IMG/VR virus record: IMGVR_UViG_3300050015_000167
Location: 1 to 64,000 of that record
Length of the DNA stretch: 64,000 nt
DNA from: a virus
Direction: 5' to 3' (one strand)
In this document: positions 1-40,831 of the stretch, piece after piece
How the letters are laid out: each line of letters begins with the position of its first letter
Numbering within the stretch: position 1 is the stretch's first letter
Position numbers and translations under genes: made by a program
Notes under the pieces: generated by a model
What the model saw: the letters and a program-made list of their open reading frames with translations, nothing else
What the model was told of the DNA's origin: nothing
Databases searched by the model: none

Positions 1-417
1 CTCCTTAAAAACATTGGAGTATCCGACCACTCCGAAGTCATTGATGCTCTCCAAGTACTCCGGTGTAATGGAGTGGAAGACACCCTCTGGTTGCTCCGGA
101 GTACCGCATGTTTTGAAGACACGGCTCAGGCATGGGCGGAGTACAATAAGGTGAAGGCTCCGGCATGGGCGGAGTACAATAAGGTGAAGGCTCCGGCATG
201 GGCGGAGTACAATAAGGTGACGGCTCAGGCATGGGCGGAGTACGATAAGGTGACGGCTCAGGCACGGGCGGAGTACGATAAGGTGAAGGCTCAGGCACTG
301 GCGGAGTACGATAAGGTGAAGGCTCAGGCACTGGCGGAGTACGATAAGGTGAAGGCTCAGGCATGGGCGGAGTACAATAAGGTGAAGGCTCCGGCATTAG
401 AAAATATACTTTCGTAA
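1..417 (+). CDS. 3' part of a gene entering from the left edge; C-terminus made of eight 11-aa repeats AEY[ND]KV[KT]A[PQ]A[WLR]
   Basis: Frame 1 is open from base 1 to TAA 415-417. The 33-bp repeat is in frame. The next promoter begins at 422. Confidence 0.6.
   Translation, partial: LLKNIGVSDHSEVIDALQVLRCNGVEDTLWLLRSTACFEDTAQAWAEYNKVKAPAWAEYNKVKAPAWAEYNKVTAQAWAEYDKVTAQARAEYDKVKAQALAEYDKVKAQALAEYDKVKAQAWAEYNKVKAPALENILS
121..399. repeat. 33-bp tandem repeat, about 8.5 near-identical copies
   Basis: Unit GCGGAGTACAATAAGGTGAAGGCTCCGGCATGG (few variable positions) starts at 136, 169, 202, 235, 268, 301, 334 and 367. Confidence 0.9.
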
Positions 418-421
418 GTAT

Positions 422-456
422 TTGACATCCATCGCAGAATGTGAGATACTTGAAAT
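422..456 (+). promoter_or_regulatory. sigma70-like promoter abutting the start codon
   Basis: TTGACA 422-427; 17 bp; TGaGATACT (-10 at 445-450); 6 nt; ATG 457. Confidence 0.65.
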
Positions 457-885
457 ATGAAGACACAAGACGAACTACTCCTTGACTTAGTACGAAGCCT
501 CCCTGAACTAGTCCTAACTGGCAGCCGGTACTTCGGTACGGCCCGCCGAGATTCGGACTGGGACTTCATGTTGCCCGCTGGTCTGGAATACATGCTGCCG
601 GAATCGTTTTTCCTGAAGTCCGAGAATCGTGGTCACTACAACGATCCGTGCGTGGAACAAGTGTGGGAATCGTATGCGTTGAATGTCCATGTGCAAGTCG
701 TCACCGACATGGAAACCAAGATTGCCGCTCAGAAGATCATCCGTGACGCCGGCGCCCTTGTTGGTTTGGGAAAGGAACAGCAGAAGGCAGTCTGGACGGC
801 AGTTGTCAACGCCCTCCTAATTCGTCGGTGGCGGCCGGCCGATCTCTCAGCGGATACGTCTATTAGTTTTGGAAGTTCTTCCTAA
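457..885 (+). CDS. pol-beta-fold (minimal) nucleotidyltransferase-like protein
   Basis: TGSRYFGTARRDSDWDF gives GS-x10-DxD, the G[SG]...[DE]x[DE] signature of MNT-type nucleotidyltransferases. 142 aa, preceded by a promoter. Confidence 0.55.
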   Translation: MKTQDELLLDLVRSLPELVLTGSRYFGTARRDSDWDFMLPAGLEYMLPESFFLKSENRGHYNDPCVEQVWESYALNVHVQVVTDMETKIAAQKIIRDAGALVGLGKEQQKAVWTAVVNALLIRRWRPADLSADTSISFGSSS

Positions 886-985
886 TGTGCCCGAGTAACA
901 CTTGGGGAGAAACTCACCTTCCAAATACCCCGGCGTTAGTAGCGGACCACCCGCGAAACCGCCGGGTTTCTTTAGGCCCAAACTT

Positions 986-1042
986 TCGTTATGATAACAG
1001 AAACCACTTGACAACCATGTTAGTAACTGTTACACTTTAAAT
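986..1042 (+). promoter_or_regulatory. early promoter cassette (palindrome + sigma70-like promoter, leaderless geometry)
   Basis: CGTTATGATAACAG 987-1000; TTGACA 1008-1013; 17 bp; TACACT 1031-1036; 6 nt; ATG 1043. Confidence 0.65.
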
Positions 1043-1225
1043 ATGAATGAAACCGTGAAACCGTATCGTGATATGCCGGCCACATGGAACGCACGCAAAA
1101 AGTTGGTTCTTCTTCCTCCTGATTTGACCGAGGAATTCTGGCACGGTGGAGGACACAATTGTTCTGGAGTAGAAGGACCCTCAATGCGTAAATGGGCAAT
1201 TGAAACGTTCAAGTATTGGTTTTAG
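1043..1225 (+). CDS. hypothetical small early protein (60 aa)
   Basis: ORF starts exactly 6 nt after the -10 box. Confidence 0.5.
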   Translation: MNETVKPYRDMPATWNARKKLVLLPPDLTEEFWHGGGHNCSGVEGPSMRKWAIETFKYWF

Positions 1226-1264
1226 ATTGTTTCCTTTTAGATTCTTCAGAGCGTGCATTCCTGC

Positions 1265-1294
1265 TTGACTTTCAATAAACTAAAATGTTATACT
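1265..1294 (+). promoter_or_regulatory. sigma70-like promoter (leadered)
   Basis: TTGACT 1265-1270; 18 bp; TATACT 1289-1294; AGAGGTG precedes ATG 1314. Confidence 0.45.
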
Positions 1295-1313
1295 TGTATT
1301 AGAGGTGAATTGT

Positions 1314-1475
1314 ATGGCGATGACGGTTTCTGTATCAGTGGCCCAAGGCATTCAATACATTATAGGACAATCACTTATGGTAGGTGGCCAATGGCTCAAA
1401 ATTTGTGGTAAATTTCCAATAATGGATGAAACTGGGAAAGTTACCCATTATAACATTTTAGTGGAAAAGAGGTAA
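1314..1475 (+). CDS. hypothetical small protein (53 aa, below ORF-track cutoff)
   Basis: ATG 1314 with AGAGGTG Shine-Dalgarno; TAA 1473-1475; hand translation. Confidence 0.3.
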   Translation: MAMTVSVSVAQGIQYIIGQSLMVGGQWLKICGKFPIMDETGKVTHYNILVEKR

Positions 1476-1776
1476 TCATAGTGGGGTGGTCTGGATACAA
1501 AGAATATGTAAAAGAGGATGTTACTCTTGCCATTTTCTATGACGCGGGTCTAAAACGTTGGTATGCTTTCCGACCCGGAACAAATGATGCGGCAATATAT
1601 TTCCGTAGATGGTAATATATTCTTTTCGATATAGGTCCTACATGGTTCAAAACTTATGAGGATGCCAAATTGGAAGTAACCGCAAGAGGTTTCAAAGTAT
1701 TCTTTCCTAATATGATAAAGGAAATTATACCAGGGGAAGAACCTTGGTAACGGATGTAATAAAAAAAGGAAAATAA

Positions 1777-1953
1777 ATGATAAACGTTATATTGGTTGTT
1801 GCTTGGATTCTTGTAGTAACAATGGCGCTGACTTTCTGGATATCTCCAAAAGGATGCCGTTATCTTTCTCTTCGGTTATTTGCTCGTGCGGAGCAACTTG
1901 AAATTGGACGCAAAACGTATCATGATACAATTGCCTCCAATATGTATTTGTAG
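1777..1953 (+). CDS. hypothetical small membrane protein (58 aa)
   Basis: AAAGGA before ATG 1777; hydrophobic N-terminus MINVILVVAWILVVTMALTFWI; TAG 1951-1953. Confidence 0.35.
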   Translation: MINVILVVAWILVVTMALTFWISPKGCRYLSLRLFARAEQLEIGRKTYHDTIASNMYL

Positions 1954-1976
1954 AATCAGTTTTGGAGGTAGACTAA

Positions 1977-2186
1977 ATGCCATTCTGGGATGATGATTAC
2001 CCCGATTATGACCGTACTCCAGATGAATCTGAATTCCGTGATCCCGGGGGAAATTCTGCTCTACGTGCCGGTAAACGGACTAAACCGTGCCCTACATGTG
2101 GCAGAAAGAATGCTTTGACCGTAAAGGACGTTCAATTGGGTTATCAATGTGATCCGTGCGCGAATCGCGCCGAAAGAGGATTTTAA
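1977..2186 (+). CDS. small zinc-ribbon protein
   Basis: CPTC...CDPC pair of CxxC motifs; GGAGG before ATG 1977. Confidence 0.55.
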   Translation: MPFWDDDYPDYDRTPDESEFRDPGGNSALRAGKRTKPCPTCGRKNALTVKDVQLGYQCDPCANRAERGF

Positions 2187-2323
2187 TGGACAAAGCGCAT
2201 CTAGTTATGGAGAAGTATTTCGATACGGACGTGACCGATTACGAGTCGGCCATGGACGTATTTCTGGACAACGACGTTGATCCGGAGATTGCTCGTTTCA
2301 TCGCCAGCACGATGTTCCCATAA
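2186..2323 (+). CDS. hypothetical small acidic protein (45 aa)
   Basis: ATG overlaps the upstream TAA (TAATG). Followed by hairpin GAGGGC-AAAA-GCCCTC. Confidence 0.35.
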   Translation: MDKAHLVMEKYFDTDVTDYESAMDVFLDNDVDPEIARFIASTMFP

Positions 2324-2350
2324 GGAAGAGGGCAAAAGCCCTCAAGCATG

Positions 2351-2430
2351 TGTTATGATAACAAGAAGCTTACGTTATGATAACAAGAAACCAGTTGACA
2401 TCCATACCCGGCGCGTGCTATAATCTTAAT
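2351..2430 (+). promoter_or_regulatory. early promoter cassette with two palindromes
   Basis: TGTTATGATAACA 2351-2363 and CGTTATGATAACA 2373-2385; TTGACA 2395-2400; 18 bp; TATAAT 2419-2424; 6 nt; ATG 2431. Confidence 0.7.
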
Positions 2431-2685
2431 ATGATTACAATGGCTTTGAATGAAAACGAAGTAGCGTTGTTCCGATTCGCGTTTCAGAAGTGGGCAAAGA
2501 TTCCCGACTCCGATCCATACAAGTACTCAATTGCCGTGTACCTGACCAAGAATGAAATCCGCCTTTTGAGGCACGGATTAGATTTATGGATGGATGAGGA
2601 TTCATCTATTTTTCCTTCTCCAGAAACAAATGCGGGAACAGCATTATTCCACGCTATGATGGAATTTGAGGAATGCGAAGAATAG
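2431..2685 (+). CDS. hypothetical early protein (84 aa)
   Basis: ORF track gives 2377..2685, but 2377-2430 is the palindrome/promoter. ATG 2431 lies 6 nt after TATAAT. Confidence 0.55.
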   Translation: MITMALNENEVALFRFAFQKWAKIPDSDPYKYSIAVYLTKNEIRLLRHGLDLWMDEDSSIFPSPETNAGTALFHAMMEFEECEE

Positions 2686-2810
2686 AAACCATTTTCCTCA
2701 CCGCTGTAATGTTGATGGTGGCGATATTATTTTCCTATATCGTCACCCAAGCATTGATAGATATATTTTGGATTTTGTGGTATTGTTATCCTTTTGGTTT
2801 CTAAAGCCTC

Positions 2811-2823
2811 TGTTATCATAACG
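2811..2823. promoter_or_regulatory. solitary copy of the palindrome
   Basis: TGTTATCATAACG, about 125 bp upstream of the next -35 box. Confidence 0.5.
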
Positions 2824-2946
2824 TTAGTTTCCCCTACTTTAGCGTTACAGTTTGCGTTGTATTTTGGCCCATGCTGTAGTATCAGACTGTATGGACAAAT
2901 CGAACCTAGAGCATTGTAGCGCGATAAAATAAATGTAATTCGACTA

Positions 2947-2980
2947 TTGACAAGCATATATAGGTTTGATATTATAGATC
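2947..2980 (+). promoter_or_regulatory. sigma70-like promoter, leaderless geometry
   Basis: TTGACA 2947-2952; 17 bp; TATTAT 2970-2975; 5 nt; ATG 2981. Confidence 0.65.
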
Positions 2981-3283
2981 ATGAGCGAATTAAGAAACAA
3001 CACTGTTTCCACCGATAAATTCGATTACGCAAATCGAGTTTATTCCGCTGAAATTTCCGATTTAGGACAATCGTTCCGATTCACCCAAATTTACACGGAT
3101 GCAGCGGATCGTGGTTTCACCCTTCAATCCCGAACAGGGAAAGTTGCCAATTTCTTTGTAGCGCACCGGCACGAAGATGGTGAAGGTGATACTACTCATT
3201 GGACTTTATTGCCGACGCCAGAGGCGATCCGACAAAATCCTAACCTTCATGATGTCCATATAGTGCTGTTCAACCATGATTAG
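2981..3283 (+). CDS. hypothetical early protein (100 aa)
   Basis: ORF begins 5 nt after the -10 box. Confidence 0.6.
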   Translation: MSELRNNTVSTDKFDYANRVYSAEISDLGQSFRFTQIYTDAADRGFTLQSRTGKVANFFVAHRHEDGEGDTTHWTLLPTPEAIRQNPNLHDVHIVLFNHD

Positions 3284-3293
3284 GAGTTATCCA

Positions 3294-3527
3294 ATGTACG
3301 ATGGCTACGATGATTACGAATTAGATTCCAGAGAGGCGTTCTATGAACAGGATGACCTCGAAACCTTCAACCAGAATGAAGCGGATGATTACCGCAATGA
3401 GGGATCAGATGACAGTGACCTGGATTACGATCTTGATGCGGATTTGGACTTCTTGGACGAATTAGAAGACTTCCTTTATCACCGAGATGAAGCCACACGG
3501 CTCGGTGATGATATTTCCTATCAGTAA
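3294..3527 (+). CDS. extremely acidic small protein (Asp/Glu/Tyr-rich)
   Basis: AGGAG 3281-3285 then ATG 3294 (ORF track start 3276). Sequence MYDGYDDYELD...DSDLDYDLDADLDFLDELEDF. Confidence 0.6.
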   Translation: MYDGYDDYELDSREAFYEQDDLETFNQNEADDYRNEGSDDSDLDYDLDADLDFLDELEDFLYHRDEATRLGDDISYQ

Positions 3528-3620
3528 CCAACAAATTGGTCGAGACTCACGCTAATCGGTAAAACCTGGTAGTAGAATGGTTAGACAATAAGCCAGGTAG
3601 CTTCAATCACAAGGAATTCT

Positions 3621-3645
3621 CCGGCGACAGATGTTCGCCGGGTTT
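3621..3645 (+). terminator. hairpin with short T tract
   Basis: CCGGCGA-7 nt-TCGCCGG followed by GTTTCC. Confidence 0.5.
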
Positions 3646-3662
3646 CCTTGGCCTCAAGGTCT

Positions 3663-3720
3663 CGTTATCATAACAAATTCTTGCTTGACAGGATACAGTT
3701 ATTTGTGTTATGATTTAATC
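3663..3720 (+). promoter_or_regulatory. early promoter cassette
   Basis: CGTTATCATAACA 3663-3675; TTGACA 3685-3690; TATGAT 3709-3714; 6 nt; ATG 3721. Confidence 0.65.
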
Positions 3721-4047
3721 ATGATGAAACGTGATCCGAAACACCAGAAGAGATTCGAGAAACTGGCTTCTCTTCTCCTTTTGACCGTAGAGGAAGCCGA
3801 TGAATTGTGCCGGGCCGCCTCTTCCACATGGGAATACATCGCATACGATTGCCTCGCTGCCGATCCTGGTCGTGACATGAAAGCGGATGAAGTGATCGAA
3901 GTAGTCCTGGATGCGAACCATATTACTTCGAATACTCGCAATCTTTCCCCCAAAGTCCGCACACTGTTGGATTCGTACACGATGTCACCGACCATCCAGA
4001 AACTCCTCAAGGAATTCGTGTTCGTGTATAAGTCTTACGGAATGTAA
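3721..4047 (+). CDS. hypothetical early protein (108 aa)
   Basis: ORF track 3631..4047 runs through the promoter. ATG 3721 is 6 nt after the -10 box. Confidence 0.6.
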   Translation: MMKRDPKHQKRFEKLASLLLLTVEEADELCRAASSTWEYIAYDCLAADPGRDMKADEVIEVVLDANHITSNTRNLSPKVRTLLDSYTMSPTIQKLLKEFVFVYKSYGM

Positions 4048-4059
4048 AAGGAAACCAAA

Positions 4060-4437
4060 ATGATGAAACGTCAAGAGTTTACCGTGTCCTTTAAAATCGT
4101 GTCGTTCCTTTCCGAAAAAGATGTAATAGAATCCGTTAAAGCCCTTTTGGCTCTTACATCTCCAAATATGTTTTATTTGACCAAGAAGGAAACCGAATCC
4201 ATTACCATTTACAAATTGGAAGAAACCAAAAATTCATTCGTTTCCGAATTCGTCCTGAAAGCCATCTTCGATGACTATTCCGAGTATTGGGATGAATGTA
4301 ATGGAAGTTGGTCTCTCTATCTCGATACTGCCACAAGATATGTCACCGAGGAAGACGCACGGAACGTCCTTTTGCCAGTTACGGCAGTAATGGACGTTTT
4401 CCAAAACAAAGGCGTTATCACAATCAGGGAAGTTTAG
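4060..4437 (+). CDS. hypothetical protein (125 aa)
   Basis: AAAGGAAA before ATG; noticeably more AT-rich than its neighbours. Confidence 0.6.
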   Translation: MMKRQEFTVSFKIVSFLSEKDVIESVKALLALTSPNMFYLTKKETESITIYKLEETKNSFVSEFVLKAIFDDYSEYWDECNGSWSLYLDTATRYVTEEDARNVLLPVTAVMDVFQNKGVITIREV

Positions 4438-4444
4438 TCTCCCC

Positions 4445-4618
4445 ATGTATAAACTCACAGTAGAATACCAACCACATTTTGATCATTACCGTATTACTGT
4501 CAAACATAAGGGAAAGTACCGGATTGAGACTATTTGGGAACATTTTGCTATCAAAGAATTTGTTGCCGTTACCATCACCAATGCCACCTCTTGGATGATT
4601 AAACACGGCGGGTTCTAA
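4445..4618 (+). CDS. hypothetical small protein (57 aa)
   Basis: Hand translation MYKLTVEYQPHFDHYRITVKHKGKYRIE...; TAA 4616-4618. Confidence 0.4.
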   Translation: MYKLTVEYQPHFDHYRITVKHKGKYRIETIWEHFAIKEFVAVTITNATSWMIKHGGF

Positions 4619-5182
4619 TAGCACAATCCAACCGATCTATTAACACACCTCCTATTCATTATGAAACCAAAAATATTGTTTATTATCACCATTTCCATAT
4701 TGTTGAGTTTCATTCTGATATATGGTGTGCTTTGGATCCTTTGTTTCATTCTTTCAGAAATTTTATGAGATTCCCTTTACTCCTTTCATGTGCTATTTTA
4801 ATCGGTAAATTGGTCGGAGAAGGTATATTCCTGCTTCTCTTGAAAATATTCTGAAGGAATCCATTTTCCATAGCCATATTATTGTGGCGAGATATACTTA
4901 AGTGGCTGCTAAAGTAACAAAAAGAGGAAATAAAGGGAAAAGAATATATCGTGCCGAGAGGTAAGGAGTATCCACATGGTTGCTCCAATAATAGGGATGA
5001 AATGAGGATGAGGACCATTAGTGACCTCTTAAGTCCTTTGAGTCCATTGGAGTCCCTTTGGTTCCGTTGTCAGTCGACCCAGCACCCCAAAACTCCAGCG
5101 GTCCCAGTGGTCCCAGAGGACCTCTGTGGTTCCCAGTCCCTCTGTGTCCATTGTCCCTCTCCGGTTTTCTCCTCACAAGCTT

Positions 5183-5302
5183 CTGTTATCATAACGGACC
5201 CTTCCAGTCCACCAAGGTCCCGTTATCATAACGCCCTCTTGCCAATAATTCCCAAAAAACTTTGATATTCCGCTTGACAGTAGCCCCGGGGACTGCTATA
5301 TT
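5183..5302 (+). promoter_or_regulatory. two palindromes plus sigma70-like promoter (leadered)
   Basis: CTGTTATCATAACGG 5183-5197; CGTTATCATAACG 5221-5233; TTGACA 5274-5279; 17 bp; TATATT 5297-5302; 49-nt leader with AAGGAG before ATG 5352. Confidence 0.6.
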
Positions 5303-5351
5303 AGAAGAGTAGACAGAAACACACACTCGCAGAAAACGAAGGAGATACATT

Positions 5352-5777
5352 ATGAGTTTCAAACGAATCGAAGGCGTGCTGCCCAACGGCAACCCCAAGA
5401 CCCTTTTCCGCGCTATTGCGCTTAATACTCAACAGTTTGCCCTCGTCCAGAGCATCATTGCTTTCCACAATGGCGAGACCAAGCTCACCCGGAAACAGAT
5501 CCTCGCTTGCAACGAGACGTTGCGCCCCGGGAAAGCATACATGCCGTACTTCATTTCCAAGAACGTCGCGTGCCGCAGGGCCGGCGATGCGTTCGGGATC
5601 TATAACTTGTCCGGTCTGAAAGCTGCGTCCGGAAAGTCCGTCGCCGCTCCGACCCCCAAGAAGGAAAAGAAGGCGAAGGCTAAGAAGGAAGCGAAGGCTA
5701 AGCGTGGACAGCCGGCTGTGGAAACGCCGGCCGTCGAAGTGAGCACGGAAGTCGCCGTGGTCCCCGAAGTCGCATAA
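5352..5777 (+). CDS. protein with globular N-domain and Lys/Ala/Pro-rich basic tail; paralog of 9766..10221
   Basis: Tail is PKKEKKAKAKKEAKAKRGQP. Strong SD. Shares MSFKR.EG...LFRAI and LRPGKAYMPYFISKNVAC with 9766. Confidence 0.7.
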   Translation: MSFKRIEGVLPNGNPKTLFRAIALNTQQFALVQSIIAFHNGETKLTRKQILACNETLRPGKAYMPYFISKNVACRRAGDAFGIYNLSGLKAASGKSVAAPTPKKEKKAKAKKEAKAKRGQPAVETPAVEVSTEVAVVPEVA

Positions 5778-5797
5778 CCACCCAGTATATCACCAAA

Positions 5798-5826
5798 CGG
5801 AAAGGGTATCAAGCCCTTTCCGTTTT
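5798..5826 (+). terminator. rho-independent terminator
   Basis: CGGAAAGGG-7 nt-CCCTTTCCG followed by TTTT. Confidence 0.7.
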
Positions 5827-5843
5827 CCTTTTGGGGCAAGAAC

Positions 5844-5913
5844 CTGTTATCATAACAGGACCTTGACGATAAAACCACTTGACAATGTATTCAGAATGTG
5901 AGATACTGTGAAT
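5844..5913 (+). promoter_or_regulatory. early promoter cassette
   Basis: CTGTTATCATAACAG 5844-5858; TTGACA 5879-5884; 17 bp; TGaGATACT (-10 at 5902-5907); 6 nt; ATG 5914. Confidence 0.7.
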
Positions 5914-6150
5914 ATGAAACAGATCAGTATTCTCGAAGCCCAAGAGATCACCGCGGCCGCTGGCGCTGCCATTGCCGGCCTTCTGAAGACCTACGGTGTT
6001 ACCGTGAATGGTAAACTCGTGCCGCCCGGGCCGACGGTGCGTGGCTATGTGGCTTGGAATAAAAAGCTCAAGGCCGTATACAACCCGGCCATTACATGGC
6101 GTCCGGATGCGTTCTTGGGGGAAACCCAACAGTATGCCCTGGTGAGCTAG
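5914..6150 (+). CDS. hypothetical early protein (78 aa)
   Basis: ORF track starts at GTG 5908, inside the gap after the -10 box. ATG 5914 fits the 6-nt rule. Confidence 0.6.
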   Translation: MKQISILEAQEITAAAGAAIAGLLKTYGVTVNGKLVPPGPTVRGYVAWNKKLKAVYNPAITWRPDAFLGETQQYALVS

Positions 6151-6153
6151 GGA

Positions 6154-6232
6154 GAGGGCTTCGGCCCTCAAGGTCCTGTTATCATAACAGAATTATCTTG
6201 ACATCCATTGGTGTGCGTGCTACTATATGAAT
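6154..6232 (+). promoter_or_regulatory. hairpin + palindrome + promoter cassette
   Basis: GAGGGC-TTCG-GCCCTC 6154-6169; CTGTTATCATAACAG 6176-6190; TTGACA 6198-6203; 17 bp; TACTAT 6221-6226; ATG 6233. Confidence 0.7.
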
Positions 6233-6562
6233 ATGAAATTGATTATCAACGTAGCAAACGAGCGGTACGCCAACGTAGAGGTATCCGGTTTCAAGTTCGA
6301 GGTTGAACTCGAAAACGTACCGGAAGACCGCCAGTGGAAGATTGAGGAGCTCCGTGGGGAGCGCGACCGCCTACAGGTCGACTTCAATAACGTGGCTGAC
6401 CAGTTGAGCCAGGCACTCGCAACGATCCGCACCCAACGTACGGAAGCGGCGCCTGTCCGCAACAAAATCAACGCCATCAAGAAGGTCCGCGAACTGACCA
6501 ACATGGGCCTCAAGGAAGCCGTGGACCTCACCGATGCCATGGTTGTGGCGTTAAACCAGTAA
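6233..6562 (+). CDS. early protein with ribosomal L7/L12 C-terminal-domain-like segment
   Basis: INAIKKVRELTNMGLKEAVDLTDA resembles the IK.VR..TGLGLKEAKDLV segment of L7/L12. ORF track start 6227 abuts the -10 box. Confidence 0.55.
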   Translation: MKLIINVANERYANVEVSGFKFEVELENVPEDRQWKIEELRGERDRLQVDFNNVADQLSQALATIRTQRTEAAPVRNKINAIKKVRELTNMGLKEAVDLTDAMVVALNQ

Positions 6563-6589
6563 CCAACAAGACCGGAACCAGTCCGGTTA

Positions 6590-6616
6590 CCGGAGGGGAC
6601 AGCAACCCTCCGGTTT
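6590..6616 (+). terminator. rho-independent terminator
   Basis: CCGGAGGG-8 nt-CCCTCCGG followed by TTT; a second small hairpin at 6571-6587. Confidence 0.65.
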
Positions 6617-6632
6617 CCAAGGCCTCAAGGTC

Positions 6633-6689
6633 CTGTTATCATAACAGAAACCACTTGACACCAGGCCATTGGTGTGTTAGTATTAGATT
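6633..6689 (+). promoter_or_regulatory. early promoter cassette
   Basis: CTGTTATCATAACAG 6633-6647; TTGACA 6655-6660; 17 bp; TAGTAT 6678-6683; 6 nt; ATG 6690. Confidence 0.7.
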
Positions 6690-7274
6690 ATGAAACGCAT
6701 TACACTGTTGGCTTTGATGATTGCCTCTGCCTGCTACGGCCAGAGGGTTCAAACAATGGCAGGGAATCTGCCACGTGACCTCCTGGGACCTGTTGATATG
6801 CGGGACACCCGAACGGTTTGCAACGGACCGTGCATTTGGGGAAATGCGGACAGCGTTTTAATGCCGATCACCTTTTCCCCACCGGCCGGCTTCCGTGTGA
6901 AGATCTTGAGCCTCCGCGGCGATATGGTATCGTGGATCAAAAGCCTTCCGGGTGACAAAGCCACTCCGTTGGAGAGCATGGCCGGGACTTTGATGGGCTT
7001 CGAGGAAAACGATACCCAGACGGACCTGGCATGCACCTACTGTGCAATGCGTACCCCACTGTATATCCAAGACAGTGTGGGAGAAAAGTCTCCCAATCAC
7101 CGCGCCGACTTCAATTACGATGGTGTGGACCTGGTGCTGCCGGCCGATAACACCCTCAACCTCAAGATTGCGGCCTGGCTCAATACGACCGGAAAGCCAA
7201 TTCACATTGAAGCCACATACGTAATCAAGTTCCAATTCGTTCGAATCCGTGACAACGAAGAGGAGGCCAAGTAA
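6690..7274 (+). CDS. exported protein (194 aa) with Sec-type signal peptide
   Basis: N-terminus MKRITLLALMIASACYGQ; several Cys in the mature part. Confidence 0.65.
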   Translation: MKRITLLALMIASACYGQRVQTMAGNLPRDLLGPVDMRDTRTVCNGPCIWGNADSVLMPITFSPPAGFRVKILSLRGDMVSWIKSLPGDKATPLESMAGTLMGFEENDTQTDLACTYCAMRTPLYIQDSVGEKSPNHRADFNYDGVDLVLPADNTLNLKIAAWLNTTGKPIHIEATYVIKFQFVRIRDNEEEAK

Positions 7275-7390
7275 TGTTGTATCTCATCATCGCCGGTATA
7301 TGGATTATATTGTGTTGCCTTTCGGCGCTCTGGTTTTATTGTGCCAAGGCACAGGAACGGAGGCTCCGCAATATGCGGAAGGGGAGATAA
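7274..7390 (+). CDS. small single-pass membrane peptide (38 aa)
   Basis: TAATG overlap with the upstream gene; MLYLIIAGIWIILCCLSALWFYC then basic tail. Confidence 0.35.
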   Translation: MLYLIIAGIWIILCCLSALWFYCAKAQERRLRNMRKGR

Positions 7391-7403
7391 ACTCCCCAAG
7401 ACC

Positions 7404-7460
7404 CTGTTATCATAACAGAATTATCTTGACATCCCCAGTGGACTATGTTATCATTGTTAT
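7404..7460 (+). promoter_or_regulatory. early promoter cassette
   Basis: CTGTTATCATAACAG 7404-7418; TTGACA 7426-7431; 17 bp; TATCAT 7449-7454; 6 nt; ATG 7461. Confidence 0.7.
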
Positions 7461-7739
7461 ATGACAAGTTTAGAAATGCAGAAGGCCATCGGCCAGCCCG
7501 TGATATACGAGAGCCACGGCCTCCGTTTTGTATGCGTGGTGAGGGATGTAAAGGTCTCTTATGGACAACCACGCTTCCTGATTACGCCAATGATGGGAAC
7601 AGGAGAGACCTTTGTAGAGATTGGCACGATTTCACCGATGCCAGCGGATAAGAACCAATTGCGATATACACCGGAACGCCACGTGAGCCCGGGGTACGCT
7701 GCCCTCCCTAGTGGTCAGAACGGAATGATTGTCCGTTAG
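7461..7739 (+). CDS. hypothetical early protein (92 aa)
   Basis: Starts 6 nt after the -10 box. Confidence 0.6.
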   Translation: MTSLEMQKAIGQPVIYESHGLRFVCVVRDVKVSYGQPRFLITPMMGTGETFVEIGTISPMPADKNQLRYTPERHVSPGYAALPSGQNGMIVR

Positions 7740-7750
7740 TGAAATAGTTG

Positions 7751-7785
7751 TTGACATCCGCCAACGATTGTGAGATACTAATTAC
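7751..7785 (+). promoter_or_regulatory. sigma70-like promoter, leaderless geometry, no palindrome
   Basis: TTGACA 7751-7756; 17 bp; TGaGATACT (-10 at 7774-7779); 6 nt; ATG 7786. Confidence 0.65.
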
Positions 7786-7965
7786 ATGAGCAAATCGAGT
7801 AACACACCGGGCGCCGCACGAGCGCATTATGAGACGCGCAAAGCGAATCGCCCCGTCCAGATCTGGAAAAAGGCTTTGAAGTCGAAGCCCGGTGTCCCCT
7901 CCACGCGCATTGCCGCGGCCAAGGGTGAAGTGGGAGCCATCCCAGTCAAGTCGTTTTCGAAGTAA
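7786..7965 (+). CDS. hypothetical basic protein (59 aa, below ORF-track cutoff)
   Basis: Hand translation MSKSSNTPGAARAHYETRKANRPVQIWKK...; TAA 7963-7965. Confidence 0.45.
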   Translation: MSKSSNTPGAARAHYETRKANRPVQIWKKALKSKPGVPSTRIAAAKGEVGAIPVKSFSK

Positions 7966-7977
7966 AGGAGCCACACC

Positions 7978-8112
7978 ATGAAGGATTTCGCCGTCGTCAC
8001 GGATTGCCGGACGTATTTCGCTACGTCCGTTGCCGCTAACGTTTACGGATGGGCCACAGGCGGCACCGTCGAAGTCTGGACAAAGAACGGCTGGAAGCCG
8101 TTGAAGGGATAA
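7978..8112 (+). CDS. hypothetical small protein (44 aa)
   Basis: AAGGAG before ATG 7978; TAA 8110-8112. Confidence 0.4.
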   Translation: MKDFAVVTDCRTYFATSVAANVYGWATGGTVEVWTKNGWKPLKG

Positions 8113-8156
8113 GTTTCATACCCGGAGAAGTAGCGCTAAAATTCTCCGATCGCTAG

Positions 8157-8208
8157 CCGGAAGGTGAGCTATAGAGGTCTGCGACCTCCATTGGCCCTTC
8201 CGGTTTTT
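8157..8208 (+). terminator. compound hairpin terminator
   Basis: CCGGAAGG...CCTTCCGG enclosing GAGGTC-TGC-GACCTC, followed by TTTTT. Confidence 0.65.
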
Positions 8209-8224
8209 CTTTGTGACCAAGGTT

Positions 8225-8238
8225 CTATTATCATAACG
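8225..8238. promoter_or_regulatory. degenerate copy of the palindrome
   Basis: CTATTATCATAACG; no well-spaced promoter follows. Confidence 0.4.
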
Positions 8239-8402
8239 AAAGCTTGATATAGACCGCTCTAATAGCGTGGCCACTGTATACTAAATGATGCGATTTCTAC
8301 CCCTACAATGACGCTGGCTGCATTTGTCCATACCCCCTGATACTACAGCATGGGCCGGCCAGCCGACGCAGCCAAGGGCTCGGTATCGATAACGAATAGT
8401 GC

Positions 8403-8436
8403 TTGACTATTAGAACTACCTGTGTTAGTATAGATC
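8403..8436 (+). promoter_or_regulatory. sigma70-like promoter, leaderless geometry
   Basis: TTGACT 8403-8408; 17 bp; TAGTAT 8426-8431; 5 nt; ATG 8437. Confidence 0.65.
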
Positions 8437-8625
8437 ATGGCATTCAATGAAGTAGCTTTCAGAGCGGATCCCGATTCGTTTGATATCAGGGTTTGCGCGG
8501 AAGAGACCGTACTCGGTATGCCTGGTATGGCATTCTTACAATGGAGAGACGCATTCTTGGACACCAAGCCCGGCGTATTCATGCTCCACAAAGCCGAGTG
8601 TCTAATAGATCCATGCGGAAAATAG
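8437..8625 (+). CDS. hypothetical early protein (62 aa)
   Basis: Starts 5 nt after the -10 box. Confidence 0.5.
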   Translation: MAFNEVAFRADPDSFDIRVCAEETVLGMPGMAFLQWRDAFLDTKPGVFMLHKAECLIDPCGK

Positions 8626-8732
8626 TACACATGATGATCCTGTGGACATGGATGATGCCGTGTCCACAGACCCAAGTGGCAACGTTGATTGTCATAGGGA
8701 TATGGATATGGAATCGGAAAGCTTCCAAGGAC

Positions 8733-8783
8733 CCGTTATGATAACGGTGTCTATTAGAACGGAAGCTCCTGTTATGATAACGG
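8733..8783. promoter_or_regulatory. pair of palindromes 36 bp apart without an obvious promoter
   Basis: CCGTTATGATAACGG 8733-8747 (perfect 15-mer) and CTGTTATGATAACGG 8769-8783. Confidence 0.55.
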
Positions 8784-8800
8784 TACCTTGGGGCCTGGAA

Positions 8801-8835
8801 ATGCCCTCCGGGGAGAACCGGAGGGCATGGTTTTT
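8801..8835 (+). terminator. strong rho-independent terminator at the switch to leftward genes
   Basis: ATGCCCTCCGG-6 nt-CCGGAGGGCAT followed by GGTTTTT. Confidence 0.7.
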
Positions 8836-8978
8836 ACCGGGGCATTGCCCGCAGTCTGATGTGAGGTGGTGATGTCCAGGTCAGGGTCTCGGCGGCCCGC
8901 TGGCGTTTGCAATCTGCGATGAACCGTTTCCAGGTACGGAGTATGGACTTCATTTTACCCTCCCAGGAGAAACCCCGC

Positions 8979-9347
8979 TTATGCGGGGTTGAGCATTTTC
9001 GCTTTCGCTTTGGCTTCGATCATTTCGAGTAGCTGCCCGCGATACTTGGCAATCGTGGGGACGGGGACGGTGCCGCGTTTCCAGGGGCGGCGGCAATTGC
9101 GCAGGTCGTCGGCGGTCAGATGGCCCCCGGCGAGTATCACGCGAGCATAGTTCCCGAATTCGCGGGCGTCGGCGACCTGGAAGCCTACGGTGTTTTTGAC
9201 GTAGGTCTCGCCCGTCTGTTTTTCTACTTCGGTCTGGCGTTTATACAGTGCGACGATGGCCATCTCGACCCATGCGTCATTAGTCGAAAGCATATCGAGG
9301 ATCTTTGCTTTCGTCCAGTCGGTTACTTTGTTGTAATTAACGTACAT
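8979..9347 (-). CDS. hypothetical protein (122 aa)
   Basis: ORF track 8979..9398. Minus-strand TTGCAA-16 bp-TACTAT lies at 9384-9357, 9 nt before ATG 9347. The spacer contains a CGTTATCAT half-site. Confidence 0.55.
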   Translation of the reverse strand: MYVNYNKVTDWTKAKILDMLSTNDAWVEMAIVALYKRQTEVEKQTGETYVKNTVGFQVADAREFGNYARVILAGGHLTADDLRNCRRPWKRGTVPVPTIAKYRGQLLEMIEAKAKAKMLNPA

Positions 9348-9586
9348 AACATAATCATAGTAGCATGATAACGGGTGCTTGCAACATGTTTTTATCATAA
9401 TCGAACATTAAAATCTGTTAATGTTCCAACAGGGCCACCTGTGGTGCGCCCACTGTGGCGTGAGATATAAGCGCCCAGGGGCGGATTACAGCGTAGTCCA
9501 ACTATAGCGGAATTCCAAGCTTTTGTCAAGTATCCGAACATTAAAGTTTTTTAATAATTCAACGTCGAAAAAACTTCAGAATTCGC

Positions 9587-9620
9587 TTGACCCAGGGGGT
9601 GCGCTCTGCTACTATGAATC
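9587..9620 (+). promoter_or_regulatory. sigma70-like promoter, leaderless geometry
   Basis: TTGACC 9587-9592; 17 bp; TACTAT 9610-9615; 5 nt; ATG 9621. Confidence 0.6.
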
Positions 9621-9764
9621 ATGATTGAAACGACGATACAGAGCGCAAAAAACCTAATCGACTCGAATCCGGGCGCGGCCGCCGCTGCCATCGCCTTGGG
9701 AGTCTTTATCGCCGCCGCTTATCTCATCGTTTCGTTCTATAAAATTTACACAGGAGCTCACTAA
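9621..9764 (+). CDS. small membrane peptide (47 aa)
   Basis: Hand translation MIETTIQSAKNLIDSNPGAAAAAIALGVFIAAAYLIVSFYKIYTGAH; TAA 9762-9764. Confidence 0.4.
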   Translation: MIETTIQSAKNLIDSNPGAAAAAIALGVFIAAAYLIVSFYKIYTGAH

Positions 9765-9765
9765 A

Positions 9766-10221
9766 ATGTCATTCAAACGCCTCGAAGGTCTCACCGCGAA
9801 GGGTACGCCGATCACCCTGTTCCGCGCAATTGTTGTTAACGCCGAGCAATTCAAGCTGGCCCAAGATATGATCGCCGCCAACAACGGCGAGCCCCTGATG
9901 ACCCGCAAAGTCATCCTGTCCATGAATGAAGCCCTACGCCCCGGGAAAGCATACATGCCGTACTTCATTTCCAAGAACGTCGCCTGCAAGACCAAGACGT
10001 TCGGTGTTTACGACCTGTCTAAACTGAAGCTTTCGGCCGCCGCGAAGGCCGCTGCCGTCGAAACCCCCGCGCCCGAATCGACACCGATCTCCGCGCCGAA
10101 GACCAAGCGCGTCCGCGCAAAGCGCGAATCCAAGCCGAAGCTTGGGCAGCCCGAAACCCCCGTCGCCGAGTCGGTCGAGCACCCGCCCCTGGGCATCGAA
10201 GCCCCCGCCGTCACCGAGTAA
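9766..10221 (+). CDS. paralog of 5352..5777 (globular N-domain + basic/Pro-rich tail)
   Basis: AGGAG before ATG. Shares a 47-bp identical stretch (9937-9983) with 5523-5569. Confidence 0.7.
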   Translation: MSFKRLEGLTAKGTPITLFRAIVVNAEQFKLAQDMIAANNGEPLMTRKVILSMNEALRPGKAYMPYFISKNVACKTKTFGVYDLSKLKLSAAAKAAAVETPAPESTPISAPKTKRVRAKRESKPKLGQPETPVAESVEHPPLGIEAPAVTE

Positions 10222-10322
10222 GTTCTGATAGAATCTCCTCTCCCGAATCGCTCCCCGCTCCCCGGGGGGCTTTTTCAGGCCTACGCGTTATGTAAGTAAC
10301 CACTTACTTACTTCGCAAGGTC

Positions 10323-10336
10323 CCGTTATCATAACC
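10323..10336. promoter_or_regulatory. palindrome copy between convergent terminators
   Basis: CCGTTATCATAACC preceded by CAAGGTC. Confidence 0.5.
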
Positions 10337-10350
10337 GAAGCTTGGGCCTG

Positions 10351-10377
10351 AAAAAGCCCCCGACCGAAGCCGGGGGC
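10351..10377 (-). terminator. rho-independent terminator of the leftward gene
   Basis: Minus strand reads GCCCCCG-8 nt-CGGGGGC followed by TTTTT. Confidence 0.65.
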
Positions 10378-10393
10378 GAAGGACTGGGCGATT

Positions 10394-10717
10394 TTAGCAG
10401 AGTTTCGAAATTTGGGTCGACGCGGTGATAGCGCCCGTCTGAAAGCGGCCGAAGTGGCGAATAACGAAGGGCTGAACCTCGCGGAGGTCAACGTCGGGGT
10501 TGCTCTGCGGATACGTCATATTCGCGGAGATCCCGTTGTTTTTGAGAAGACGAAAGCGGGAGCGGCGAAGCTTGTAAGCGGCGAAGGTCGTCGGCGTCTC
10601 GCCCGCTAACAGTTTGGCGATAAGCTTCAACGAGCCGGCAATGTGGCCTTGCTTGCGGGCGAGGAGGTTGCTGTTTTTGCGCTGTTCCCGGCGCAGGGTT
10701 TTCTCGGTTTTGGTCAT
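10394..10717 (-). CDS. hypothetical basic protein (107 aa)
   Basis: GC-rich ORF followed by a terminator; Arg/Lys-rich N-terminus. Confidence 0.55.
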   Translation of the reverse strand: MTKTEKTLRREQRKNSNLLARKQGHIAGSLKLIAKLLAGETPTTFAAYKLRRSRFRLLKNNGISANMTYPQSNPDVDLREVQPFVIRHFGRFQTGAITASTQISKLC

Positions 10718-10725
10718 TTGTCTCC

Positions 10726-10890
10726 TTAGAAGTCTTCAGATGCAATGAAGGCGCGCCATGCGGGGAGCTCCCAGCCGTCGGGCGCATTGTAGTACAGATT
10801 CGAATGGGTCGAGCATTCCACGCGCAATTCAGCGATTAGCGCGGGGTCGTTTGTTTTCTTGACGTTGATGTAGTCGGCTAGCGTGCTCAT
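10726..10890 (-). CDS. hypothetical small protein (54 aa)
   Basis: ORF track 10726..10956. A minus-strand TTGACG promoter-like element lies inside 10891-10956, so ATG 10890 (MSTLADYINV) is preferred. Confidence 0.45.
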   Translation of the reverse strand: MSTLADYINVKKTNDPALIAELRVECSTHSNLYYNAPDGWELPAWRAFIASEDF

Positions 10891-11364: not shown

Positions 11365-11542
11365 GGAATCATAAAAGTGGGAAATCGAGAGTAGATACTA
11401 TCGATTAAAGTTTGTGTTCGTATGTGTGTATCAAAGAATTCCCATTCCAAAAAATTTTTCTGGAGGACATAGAGGACTCAGTGGACCTTTGTGTCCATTC
11501 GTGATTCGAGAATATCATAATACTCAATGATAAATAGAGAAT

Positions 11543-11902
11543 ATGATAACCGAAACCGAATTGAAACTGATCCGTAAACAACAAAAAGAAGTTAGAGATC
11601 GATATAAACAAAATCATCCAGAAGGAGCAATGGACGCTCATCGTCAAAAGAAATACGGAATCACTCCTGAACAATTTCATTCTCTTATATTAAAACAAAA
11701 TAATTGTTGTGCGATTTGTGGTAAACCTGAGACCATAAAATGGAGAGGAAAAATTAAAAAACTTGCTATAGACCATAACCACGATACAGGAAAAATTCGT
11801 GGGTTATTATGTCATTTCTGTAATGTCGGTATAGGACAATTTAGAGATTCTTTACCATTACTACAAAAAGCTATGGACTATATCAAATTACATGATTCTT
11901 AA
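11543..11902 (+). CDS. endonuclease VII-type HNH endonuclease (free-standing)
   Basis: CAICGK...LAIDHNHDTGKIRGLLCHFCNVGIGQF matches the C.IC...DHdH.TG.vRGlLC..CN..lG signature of the T4 endo VII family. Confidence 0.8.
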   Translation: MITETELKLIRKQQKEVRDRYKQNHPEGAMDAHRQKKYGITPEQFHSLILKQNNCCAICGKPETIKWRGKIKKLAIDHNHDTGKIRGLLCHFCNVGIGQFRDSLPLLQKAMDYIKLHDS

Positions 11903-12091: not shown

Positions 12092-13144
12092 TTATGGCAT
12101 CTCCGGTAATTTATCTTTTACGTCCGAATGAAGCTTTTCAAATTGAGGCCAGAAATCTTTTGGATTGATATGATAACCGGTAAGATCACCAGTGCCATCA
12201 GGAAATGTAATTTCGTAATAGCCAAAGAACGCGCCACCCATATGAGCAACTGGCTTTTCATTTTCGTCCATAATATCGACCATCGAATCAGCAATCTTGA
12301 AACGACACTTACCTTTATGTACACCAGGATGCCAGTCGCAATACACAGGCACAGTGATATAACCTACTGGCTCTTTAGGCGCTTCTTTGTCCCAATTGAC
12401 GATTTCATCCTTTTCTATTTCGAATTCGATCTCTGGCAGAACTTCATCCACATCTGTTTCGATGTATGATATTCCGGGTGAGGGAAGCAAAGCTTTAACA
12501 GGTGTGTCAACATTATTATCAATTTCGACGCTGGATACTCCTGGTGAAATGTAGTTTCGGCCGTCTTCGCCAACCCATTCAGAAGTGTAGCCTTCTGGAC
12601 GTCTCAACTCTCTTCCTTCGGATTGAGTTTCTTTGATTATGGAATCTGTAGCAGTCAGAATGCTAATAGCCTCATCTTGATATGTGGCTTCGAAGACCTT
12701 ATCATGATCTGGTGACGGTAGACCGAAACTATCTCGGAACCATTGTGGAATAGGATCTTCTAGTTTTCCGTCGTCATTAATGACATTGAACATTTCGGAC
12801 ATACCCAATTGTTCAATTTCGTATTGGACAGAATTTCTATATGTAAAGCCAGAAGCGACCATCACAACAGCATTAGGATTATCATGAGCCCATTGAACAA
12901 TGGCATGAGCATTGGATTCCATAAGATCATTGCCTGGTAACATTCCACCGAAGTCATAGACAACCAGATCGGTTCCGGGATCGATAGAACCCGGGCACCA
13001 TACATGCTGGAACCTGATTTCTGCGGGAGCAAGTAGTTCGGTAAAGGTTCTCTTATGGGTCTCTACTTCATCCTCAGCGGTGACATCACCGAAGGCGTGA
13101 CCCATCGGGTCTACAAGAATCGCAACTTTAAGATGTATGTTCAT
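12092..13144 (-). CDS. hypothetical protein (350 aa)
   Basis: Long clean ORF; no motif recognised. Confidence 0.7.
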   Translation of the reverse strand: MNIHLKVAILVDPMGHAFGDVTAEDEVETHKRTFTELLAPAEIRFQHVWCPGSIDPGTDLVVYDFGGMLPGNDLMESNAHAIVQWAHDNPNAVVMVASGFTYRNSVQYEIEQLGMSEMFNVINDDGKLEDPIPQWFRDSFGLPSPDHDKVFEATYQDEAISILTATDSIIKETQSEGRELRRPEGYTSEWVGEDGRNYISPGVSSVEIDNNVDTPVKALLPSPGISYIETDVDEVLPEIEFEIEKDEIVNWDKEAPKEPVGYITVPVYCDWHPGVHKGKCRFKIADSMVDIMDENEKPVAHMGGAFFGYYEITFPDGTGDLTGYHINPKDFWPQFEKLHSDVKDKLPEMP

Positions 13145-13211
13145 AATAATATCATATCACAAAAAATCGTGGGTGTCAAGAGAATATACATATTCTTATA
13201 CGAGGATACTA

Positions 13212-18231: not shown

Positions 18232-18235
18232 ATAT
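18228..18235 (+). promoter_or_regulatory. CTAAATAT motif overlapping the g15 stop, 4 nt before the terS ATG
   Basis: GTACCCTAAATAT-TAAT-ATG 18240. Confidence 0.3.
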
Positions 18236-40830: not shown

Positions 40831-40831
40831 C

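Follow-up and report, generated by a model that had tools for sequence, protein, structure and literature searches.

Putatively leaderless first cistrons behind early-type and late-type promoters of a distant T4-type phage

How is a gene translated when its promoter ends only a few nucleotides before the start codon? The beginning of the virus record IMGVR_UViG_3300050015_000167 raises this question. We analysed positions 1 to 64,000 of the record (hereafter the window, 64,000 nt), whose source, judged by gene content, is a distant T4-type myovirus. In the first ten kilobases of the window, a row of small genes carries sigma70-type promoters whose -10 hexamer lies 5-6 nt from the ATG, and an original prediction, made from the letters of the sequence, held that these early genes are leaderless. 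In the best reading of our analysis, the first cistrons of these early-type units are indeed quite probably leaderless, with transcription starts that are predicted; the label "early" is deduced from promoter type and gene content.

Promoter geometry at the start codons

The promoter-ATG geometry is present at all twelve starts for which it had been claimed (457, 1043, 2431, 2981, 3721, 5914, 6233, 6690, 7461, 7786, 8437 and 9621): TTGAC[ACT], a 17- or 18-nt spacer ending in TGn, a -10 hexamer of the form [T/G]AnnnT, 5-6 nt, and the ATG. The gap between the -10 hexamer and the ATG is 5 nt at 2981, 8437 and 9621 and 6 nt at the other nine. The narrower form TAnnnT proposed for the -10 hexamer applies to nine of these starts but not to 457, 5914 and 7786, where the hexamer is GATACT; the TGn of an extended -10, which had gone unmentioned, is found at all twelve. 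The early promoters match TTGACA/TATAAT at 9-12 of the 12 positions, all with TGn. Three further sites fit, at 13144 on the minus strand, 38427 and 61607, which brings the total with a 5-6 nt gap to 15. As for the three cases that had been proposed in the AT-rich backbone, 38427 and 61607 (the latter with a GTG start) hold up, whereas 43668 fits loosely, with an 18-nt spacer, TATTGT as -10 and no TGn. The gene at 43668-44503, an AT-rich tyrosine recombinase gene with a promoter-abutting ATG, carries a frameshift near 43740, which is the mark of either a pseudogene or a sequencing error.

The 15 units that we predict to be leaderless are given below with their open reading frames (ORFs) and with the hairpins and copies of an 11-bp palindrome, GTTATSATAAC, that lie upstream; two promoters of the same region that are followed by leaders are included.

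422..885, plus strand: predicted leaderless unit; -35 TTGACA 422-427, TGa and GATACT 445-450, gap 6, ATG 457, ORF 457-885 (142 aa)
1008..1225, plus strand: predicted leaderless unit; -35 1008-1013, TGt and TACACT 1031-1036, gap 6, ATG 1043, ORF 60 aa; palindrome 988-998, 9 nt upstream of the -35; hairpin 929-966
1265..1475, plus strand: leadered exception; TTGACT, 18-nt spacer, TATACT (1265-1294), 19 nt from -10 to ATG 1314, GAGGT
2395..2685, plus strand: predicted leaderless unit; -35 2395-2400, 18-nt spacer, TGc and TATAAT 2419-2424, gap 6, ATG 2431, ORF 84 aa; palindromes 2352-2362 and 2374-2384; hairpin 2328-2343; the longer ORF start 2377 lies within a palindrome
2947..3283, plus strand: predicted leaderless unit; -35 2947-2952, TGa and TATTAT 2970-2975, gap 5, ATG 2981, ORF 100 aa
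3685..4047, plus strand: predicted leaderless unit; -35 3685-3690, 18-nt spacer, TGt and TATGAT 3709-3714, gap 6, ATG 3721, ORF 108 aa; palindrome 3664-3674; terminator hairpin 3620-3642
5274..5777, plus strand: leadered exception; TTGACA, 17-nt spacer, TATATT (5274-5302), 49 nt from -10 to ATG 5352, AAGGAG, ORF 141 aa
5879..6150, plus strand: predicted leaderless unit; -35 5879-5884, TGa and GATACT 5902-5907, gap 6, ATG 5914, ORF 78 aa; 29-bp palindrome 5837-5865 (core 5846-5856); terminator 5795-5825
6198..6562, plus strand: predicted leaderless unit; -35 6198-6203, TGc and TACTAT 6221-6226, gap 6, ATG 6233, ORF 109 aa; palindrome 6178-6188; hairpin 6154-6169
6655..7274, plus strand: predicted leaderless unit; -35 6655-6660, TGt and TAGTAT 6678-6683, gap 6, ATG 6690, ORF 194 aa; palindrome 6635-6645; hairpin 6589-6614
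7426..7739, plus strand: predicted leaderless unit; -35 7426-7431, TGt and TATCAT 7449-7454, gap 6, ATG 7461, ORF 92 aa; palindrome 7406-7416; hairpin 7381-7397
7751..8112, plus strand: predicted leaderless unit; -35 7751-7756, TGa and GATACT 7774-7779, gap 6, ATG 7786 (59 aa), then a Shine-Dalgarno-led cistron 7978-8112 (AAGGAG)
8403..8625, plus strand: predicted leaderless unit; TTGACT 8403-8408, TGt and TAGTAT 8426-8431, gap 5, ATG 8437, ORF 62 aa
9587..10221, plus strand: predicted leaderless unit; TTGACC 9587-9592, TGc and TACTAT 9610-9615, gap 5, ATG 9621 (47 aa), then a Shine-Dalgarno-led cistron 9766-10221 (AGGAG)
12092..13179, minus strand: predicted leaderless unit; TTGACA 13179-13174, TGa and TATGAT 13156-13151, gap 6, ATG 13144, ORF 350 aa
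38392..39344, plus strand: predicted leaderless unit in the AT-rich backbone; TTGACA, 17-nt spacer, TGa and TATAAT 38415-38420, gap 6, ATG 38427, homing endonuclease 305 aa
61572..63919, plus strand: predicted leaderless-type unit with GTG start; TTGACA, 17-nt spacer, TGc and TATAAT 61595-61600, gap 6, GTG 61607, peptidase 770 aa

This geometry, its statistics, its conservation and the division between starts with and without a Shine-Dalgarno (SD) site are read from the sequence itself. A loose form of the pattern has 21 matches in the window against 6.1 expected, and the strict form has 14 against 0.05 expected from 200 first-order Markov shuffles. Promoter-like sites number 19 (1.7 expected), and in 14 of the 19 an ATG follows at +5/+6 (binomial P = 1e-15, against a background probability of 0.044). 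Counted from the -10, the A of the start codon (14 ATG and one GTG) comes at 7 nt at 12 of the 15 sites and at 6 nt at the remaining three, and all 15 have a pyrimidine (C or T) at -1 and a purine at +1; by reading, the same context recurs at 11/11 sites of a related contig. Since a pyrimidine at -1 and a purine at +1 form the preferred start-site context of bacterial RNA polymerase, this supports a transcript start on the start codon. The geometry would thus imply, as had been proposed, that these mRNAs begin at or next to the A of the ATG. A scan of IMG/VR for TTGACATCC-N11/12-TGnTAnnnT followed by an ATG within 3-14 nt gave 34 matches at 6 nt, 17 at 7 nt and about 5 at each other distance; roughly one in six of the fragments recovered shows T4-like genes.

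Promoter-abutting starts lack an SD site, in line with the original prediction: there is none within 20 nt of the 14 plus-strand starts, and none is visible upstream of 13144 on the minus strand. The AGGAG-type sites reported for genes standing second in an operon are equally borne out, as 11 of 12 promoter-distal starts between 1 and 10.3 kb have an SD (GGAG/GAGG/AGGA, at -9 to -14), and all downstream cistrons in the region have either an SD or translational coupling. Two broader claims are not supported in the form given. That a whole temporal class is leaderless is too strong in view of 2 of the 14 sigma70-type promoters in the region, which are leadered and followed by an SD (1265, leading to ATG 1314, and 5274, leading to ATG 5352). 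It had also been suggested that the design says something about the host translation apparatus; internal genes of the phage carry canonical AGGAG sites, which means that the host ribosome reads the SD, so that the leaderless finding alone reveals no unusual apparatus.

The geometry also bears on the choice of start codon. The ORF-track starts at 2377, 3631, 5908 and 6227, which had been judged too far upstream, all lie within or upstream of promoter elements; 2377, 5908 and 6227 are located within the palindrome or directly after the -10 and would therefore not be on the transcript. Independent JGI gene calls on identical contigs put the starts at 3721, 5914 and 6233, and one JGI contig has its gene called at 6227 rather than 6233. 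The first 36 nt of the promoter-abutting ORFs are less structured than internal windows (-2.6 vs -5.5 kcal/mol, Wilcoxon p = 6e-4). The N-terminus of the protein starting at 6690, MKRITLLALMIASACYG, reads by eye, with no predictor used, as a signal peptide from its first Met.

Cassettes, late-type boxes and related phages

The early region is a row of small self-contained cassettes, each made of a terminator hairpin, often the 11-bp palindrome, a near-consensus extended -10 sigma70 promoter and an ATG. Most units open with a G+C-rich hairpin just past the preceding stop codon (929-966, 2328-2343, 3620-3642, 5795-5825, 6154-6169, 6589-6614 and 7381-7397), and no clear upstream hairpin is present at the units 2947, 7751 and 9587. 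GTTATSATAAC occurs in 15 copies between 988 and 10335, starting at 988, 2352, 2374, 2812, 3664, 5185, 5222, 5846, 6178, 6635, 7406, 8227 (1 mismatch), 8735, 8771 and 10325; the window holds 17 matches against 1.7 expected, and outside this cluster none apart from two 1-mismatch matches. In 7 of 14 early units the palindrome sits between hairpin and -35. Six copies stop 9-10 nt short of a -35, which puts their centre near -50, and five copies in a relative do likewise; one copy extends to a perfect 29-bp palindrome (5837-5865). This fixed phase suggests either a dimeric DNA-binding regulator or an RNA hairpin. Among related contigs, L277 has eight copies and L017 and L061 also carry the palindrome. 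A degenerate copy is seen in the spacer of the minus-strand promoter of 8979-9347. We rejected the idea that a GTTATCATAAC-to-TTGACA arrangement is widespread, as its 62 matches in IMG/VR are close to the estimated chance level, the close relative aside.

The design had been presented as a trait of early genes; this does not hold, since seven late-type boxes (CTAAATA/NATAAATA) also stand 5-6 nt before the ATGs of real genes:

11529..11902, plus strand: late-type box GATAAATA 11529-11536, gap 6, ATG 11543, ORF with HNH motif (by reading), 119 aa
18228..18779, plus strand: late-type box CTAAATA 18228-18234, gap 5, ATG 18240, small terminase, 179 aa
19937..21763, plus strand: late-type box CTAAATA 19937-19943, gap 5, ATG 19949, tail fibre, 604 aa
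24010..25140, plus strand: late-type box CTAAATA 24010-24016, gap 5, ATG 24022, 372 aa
28695..29176, plus strand: late-type box TATAAATA 28695-28702, gap 6, ATG 28709, homing endonuclease, 155 aa
39351..39575, plus strand: late-type box CTAAATA 39351-39357, gap 5, ATG 39363, 70 aa
60993..61575, plus strand: late-type box CTAAATA 60993-60999, gap 6, ATG 61006, GIY-YIG homing endonuclease, 189 aa
52634-53275, plus strand: homolog of the gp55-type late sigma factor (phrog_234, E = 1.3e-40)

The gp55 homolog at 52634-53275 makes these boxes plausible as promoters. The neighbouring 52147-52644 was rejected as gp55, being an HNH/endonuclease VII protein. The T4 late box spans -13 to -6, so that a gap of 5 nt would place +1 on the A of the ATG; part of the late class thus also looks leaderless by its geometry. 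In the relative L063, the ortholog of the gene at 39363 keeps the 5-nt gap behind a different box, TATAAATA. Other late genes, those for capsid, portal, scaffold and sheath, come with a leader and an SD, the distance from box to ATG being 33-51 nt. In T4, the TATAAATA box sits at the -10 position (PMC2988020); in the 75-125 kb portion of the T4 genome, it is found 14-28 nt from the ATG, mostly with an SD between, and none is at 5-6 nt. In the cultured Pelagibacter phage HTVC008M, a late-type box stands exactly 5 nt before 11 annotated starts in the first 100 kb, while the first 50 kb of cyanophage S-PRM1 have no late box at leaderless distance, and 19 of 71 environmental T4-like loci have at least one. 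On the latter two results we rejected the idea that Kyanoviridae in general share the late leaderless geometry.

The backbone holds six dispersed homing-endonuclease genes of the GIY-YIG or HNH kind (11543, 13883, 28709, 38427, 52147 and 61006), and at four of them a promoter box adjoins the ATG, which fits compact, self-expressing mobile genes.

The geometry is also not a property of this phage alone, as the early design recurs in at least two more metagenomic phages related to it. The closest relative is IMGVR_UViG_3300050015_000276 (179.7 kb), whose major capsid protein is 90% identical; in the 17 kb of it that were read, 11/11 TTGACAT-type promoters have an ATG 6-8 nt after the -10, before different genes (one of them a second ATG). 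The contigs L272 and L277 from JGI sample 3300069644 show the same promoter-ATG geometry. Individual gene families can be followed between these phages. The family of the gene at 3721 is leaderless by geometry in the window (TATGAT-6-ATGATG) and in L017 (TACATT-6-ATGATG, 47% aa identity), while its ortholog in L272 is internal and SD-led (GAAGGA); the MMK start is common to all three. The gene at 2981 has its own putatively leaderless promoter in the window, and its L272 ortholog, which begins at the same residue, has an internal position and is translationally coupled. The ortholog of the gene at 6233 in L277 (48% identity) has leaderless geometry with a gap of 5 nt (6 nt in the window). In these three families the start codon thus appears fixed, while the sequence upstream switches between a promoter and an SD or coupling. 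More generally, shared early genes are reordered between relatives (L272, L277, L061), switching between a promoter of their own and an internal position.

Leaders are kept where needed, as in the family of the gene at 5352. Its leader of about 40 nt with AAGGAG (window 5303-5351; L277 2177-2220) is conserved as …AGAGTAGACA…CACA…CGAAGGAGA…, a kind of conservation that the surrounding leaderless units lack, and may be a regulatory 5' untranslated region (UTR). The protein ends in a lysine-rich tail; its paralog, 9766-10221, follows 9621 as an SD-led cistron.

The window also contains genes for sheath, portal, scaffold, major capsid protein, large terminase, a gp46/gp47-like nuclease and the gp55-type late sigma factor, and its capsid protein is 57-60% identical to those of cultured phages of Pelagibacter, OM43, Synechococcus, Stenotrophomonas and Sinorhizobium. 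Deposited phages gave no near DNA match to the window, no exact-sequence record was found for its capsid protein, and exact-peptide searches of IMG/VR with the proteins starting at 457 and 3721 gave no match; JGI metagenome contigs (the longest 176,794 bp) carry early-region proteins identical to those of the window. The first 11.4 kb have 48% G+C vs 34-36% in the backbone. Across the window phage and its relatives (window 1-11450 vs the rest; L017, L061, L272, L277), early regions have a G+C content of 0.41-0.50 and structural regions one of 0.34-0.39. An Rfam scan of the window found no known RNA family.

At the left end of the window, a 33-bp tandem repeat (123-397, 8 copies, 95% matches) encodes an 11-residue repeat similar to AWAEYNKVKAP at the end of an ORF that runs into the window. 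An insert of 60% G+C at 40271-43590 begins within an AT-rich ORF and holds a gene in which a 69-bp unit is repeated ten times in tandem, by eye resembling leucine-rich repeats, as well as a tyrosine integrase (42537-43562, minus strand); we take the insert for a mobile element, with an assembly chimera as a possible alternative. A search for the host by this GC-rich integrase found no relative among genome contigs, and the protein homologs are unnamed metagenomic sequences or another phage-like contig. A possible host clue comes from L272, where a 47-aa gene (2577-2720) in the syntenic early region matches ribosome modulation factor (RMF; PF04957, 37.6 bits vs a cut-off of 27.9). This homolog is absent from the window. 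The distribution of the RMF family points to Gammaproteobacteria, and its presence in a relative hints at such a host.

Mechanism, alternatives and wider meaning

The start point of transcription, the mechanism of translation and the early timing are deduced from these observations. In the leaderless reading, unmodified host RNA polymerase would start at the A of the ATG, so that the transcript would begin with 5'-AUG, without leader or SD. Translation would follow the leaderless route, whereby the 5'-terminal AUG would be bound by a ribosome carrying initiator tRNA, and further cistrons on the same transcript would be served by an AGGAG-type site or by stop-start coupling. The same design would operate at part of the late-type (gp55) promoters. 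That a second, unrelated promoter type converges on a geometry with +1 at the A supports this reading.

Several points weigh against it. The 5' ends, initiation sites and N-termini are predictions from sequence alone for an uncultured phage. The 5-nt gap at 2981, 8437 and 9621 places the A at the sixth position, which is less favoured, and the G of the ATG could there compete as start point. Several of the upstream hairpins have weak T tracts, and the same ATGs may also occur within read-through transcripts, lacking an SD there. Leaderless mRNAs are poorly translated in E. coli-type hosts, and efficient leaderless expression is less expected if the RMF homolog does hint at a gammaproteobacterial host. 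Finally, promoters of the same kind precede mini-ORFs of 10 and 12 codons, at 16192 (minus strand) in the window and at 3761 in L272, so that the geometry alone is no proof of a protein-coding start. These mini-ORFs may be leader peptides or non-coding leaders; the one in L272 overlaps the SD-led start of the next gene.

In a rival explanation, the ORFs would be translated mainly from longer read-through transcripts, with the A/T-rich -10 and discriminator acting as an SD-independent enhancer of the S1 type, in which case the mRNAs would not be truly leaderless. The terminator hairpins between units do have short or interrupted T tracts, the discriminators are A/T-rich, and the short early leaders of HTVC008M, which lack an SD, indicate that SD-independent initiation exists in the group. 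Such an enhancer, however, has no need of a complete -35, a 17-nt spacer, TGn and a -10 at a constant distance of 5-6 nt, or of a pyrimidine at -1; moreover, the same genes, where internal in relatives, gain an SD or coupling, and the A/T-rich stretch is not kept. We regard this explanation as quite improbable. The promoters might instead be genuine while many of the abutting ATGs are not true starts, translation beginning further downstream or the short ORFs not being genes at all. Most of the ORFs are small ORFans without Pfam or PHROG matches, and the two mini-ORF promoters are equivalent to those of the units. Yet all 15 ATG/GTG starts open ORFs of 47-770 aa, most of which have no SD-led alternative start within their first 50 codons; orthologs align from residue 1, and the homing endonuclease at 38427 and the peptidase at 61607 have clear homologs with which they align from the first residues. 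We give this possibility hardly any weight.

The constant distance between promoter and ATG could also have been inherited, the units being copies of one mobile module resembling the promoter-early stem-loop (PeSL) cassettes of T4-type phages, and thus a frozen accident that is silent on translation. The units are repetitive: they have TTGACATCC and the palindrome in common, along with identical stretches, of which aatgtgagatact at 457 and 5914 is an example; relatives differ in their gene order, as cassette exchange predicts; and PeSL cassettes are known to recombine (PMC2839356). Nevertheless, spacers, -10 hexamers and discriminators vary between most units while the gap holds at 5-6 nt, and orthologs at 47-48% identity with different promoters still have a gap of 5-6 nt. 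The late-type boxes, unrelated in sequence, share the placement of +1 on the A, the commonest gaps across unrelated IMG/VR contigs are 6-7, and the SD is absent exactly where a promoter adjoins the ATG and present elsewhere. Inheritance of a single module is in our view a very improbable account, and we retain leaderless first cistrons as the best explanation.

One of the early proteins may itself act on translation. In the protein encoded by 6233-6562, the C-terminal 35 residues match the C-terminal domain of L7/L12 at helices 4-5 (Pfam PF00542, E = 1.5e-7, above cut-off), and L7/L12 accounts for the 13 best of 15 PDB matches (E up to 1). This domain is kept in two orthologs. Helices 4-5 of L7/L12 are the factor-binding site. 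The protein is a possible mimic of the ribosome or of a translation factor; the RMF homolog of L272 may be a second ribosome-directed early protein in the phage group. We speculate that a T4-type lineage outside the T-even phages has rebuilt both its sigma70 (early) and its gp55 (late) promoters for leaderless first cistrons, coupled with ribosome-acting proteins that favour its own 5'-AUG mRNAs over SD-led host mRNAs, although we consider this full scenario unlikely. Such a lineage would include the clade of the window phage and, for late genes, pelagimyophages such as HTVC008M; candidates for the ribosome-acting proteins are the putative mimic of the L7/L12 C-terminal domain, the RMF homolog in L272 and S21 in HTVC008M.

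The arrangement has practical consequences for annotation, as such genes are missed, or given a wrong start, by gene callers built to expect an SD (6227 for 6233; the promoter-abutting 53-codon ORF left uncalled in L272). T4 controls its early mRNAs by way of their leaders and SD sites, with RegB cleaving at GGAG and RegA acting as a repressor; a phage with leaderless first cistrons must control early expression otherwise. We hypothesize that the leaderless design is the most compact self-contained cassette, independent of SD strength, and that such cassettes may help ORFan genes and homing endonucleases to move between phages and hosts. As the late-gene version exists in a cultured pair, HTVC008M and Pelagibacter, the idea is directly testable there.

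Comparison with known systems

Leaderless genes are well established in some bacteria. In Deinococcus-Thermus, a -10 motif 6-7 bp upstream of the ORF has been found experimentally to give leaderless mRNA (PMC12340547), and leaderless genes are also present in D. deserti (PMC4007540) and in mycobacteria (PMC4633059). The window resembles Deinococcus-Thermus in its TAnnnT about 6-7 bp from the ORF, of which the commonest form there, TACACT, is also seen in the window and a relative, and it resembles both groups in that leaderless genes stand alongside a second, SD-led class. It differs in that those are cellular genomes, whereas the window belongs to a phage with a low-GC (~35%) backbone, a consensus -35 and TGn. 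Among phages, middle and late mRNAs of Thermus phage phiYS40 are mostly leaderless, and a shift in host IF2/IF3 levels was reported, according to the summary of Sevostyanova 2007 in PMC3594737. As far as that summary goes, the likeness lies in a large, temporally defined share of transcripts without leaders, and the difference in that phiYS40 is not T4-like, has a host phylum rich in leaderless genes and is leaderless in its middle and late classes.

Closer to the window, T4 shares sigma70-type early promoters with an extended -10 and a TATAAATA-type late box read by gp55, of which the window has a homolog, but its late box stands 14-28 nt from the ATG, compared with 5-6 nt at seven ATGs here. 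HTVC008M (Kyanoviridae) resembles the window in its late boxes 5 nt before 11 starts and in early promoters without a following SD. These early promoters (TTGACTTTT…TGnGATAGGAT/TATAAT; L268, L269, L271) lie 7-13 nt from the annotated ATG, corresponding to a 5' UTR of about 1-7 nt; very short early leaders thus take the place of none, the GTTATSATAAC palindrome cassette is missing, and the capsid protein is only 58% identical. In the searchable literature, where mentions were confined to reference lists or other phage groups and subscription papers fell outside coverage, we came across no account of T4-type phages with leaderless genes, early or late.

The nearest relatives of the early units are the PeSL cassettes known from the T4-type phages RB49/phi1, PST/T4 and nt-1/KVP40 (Arbiol 2010, PMC2839356; Comeau 2014, PMC4122927). 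Both have a strong near-consensus sigma70 promoter with a stem-loop terminator immediately before it, and both are repeated among small ORFan genes of a hyperplastic region in which close relatives differ in gene order. A published PeSL, however, has an SD and then the start codon at its end, whereas in the window units, which have no SD, the start codon replaces the leader, and the conserved GTTATSATAAC between hairpin and -35 is a further difference. The window units are thus PeSL-like cassettes without an SD, accompanied by gp55 promoters that appear to lack leaders: known kinds of element in a new form.

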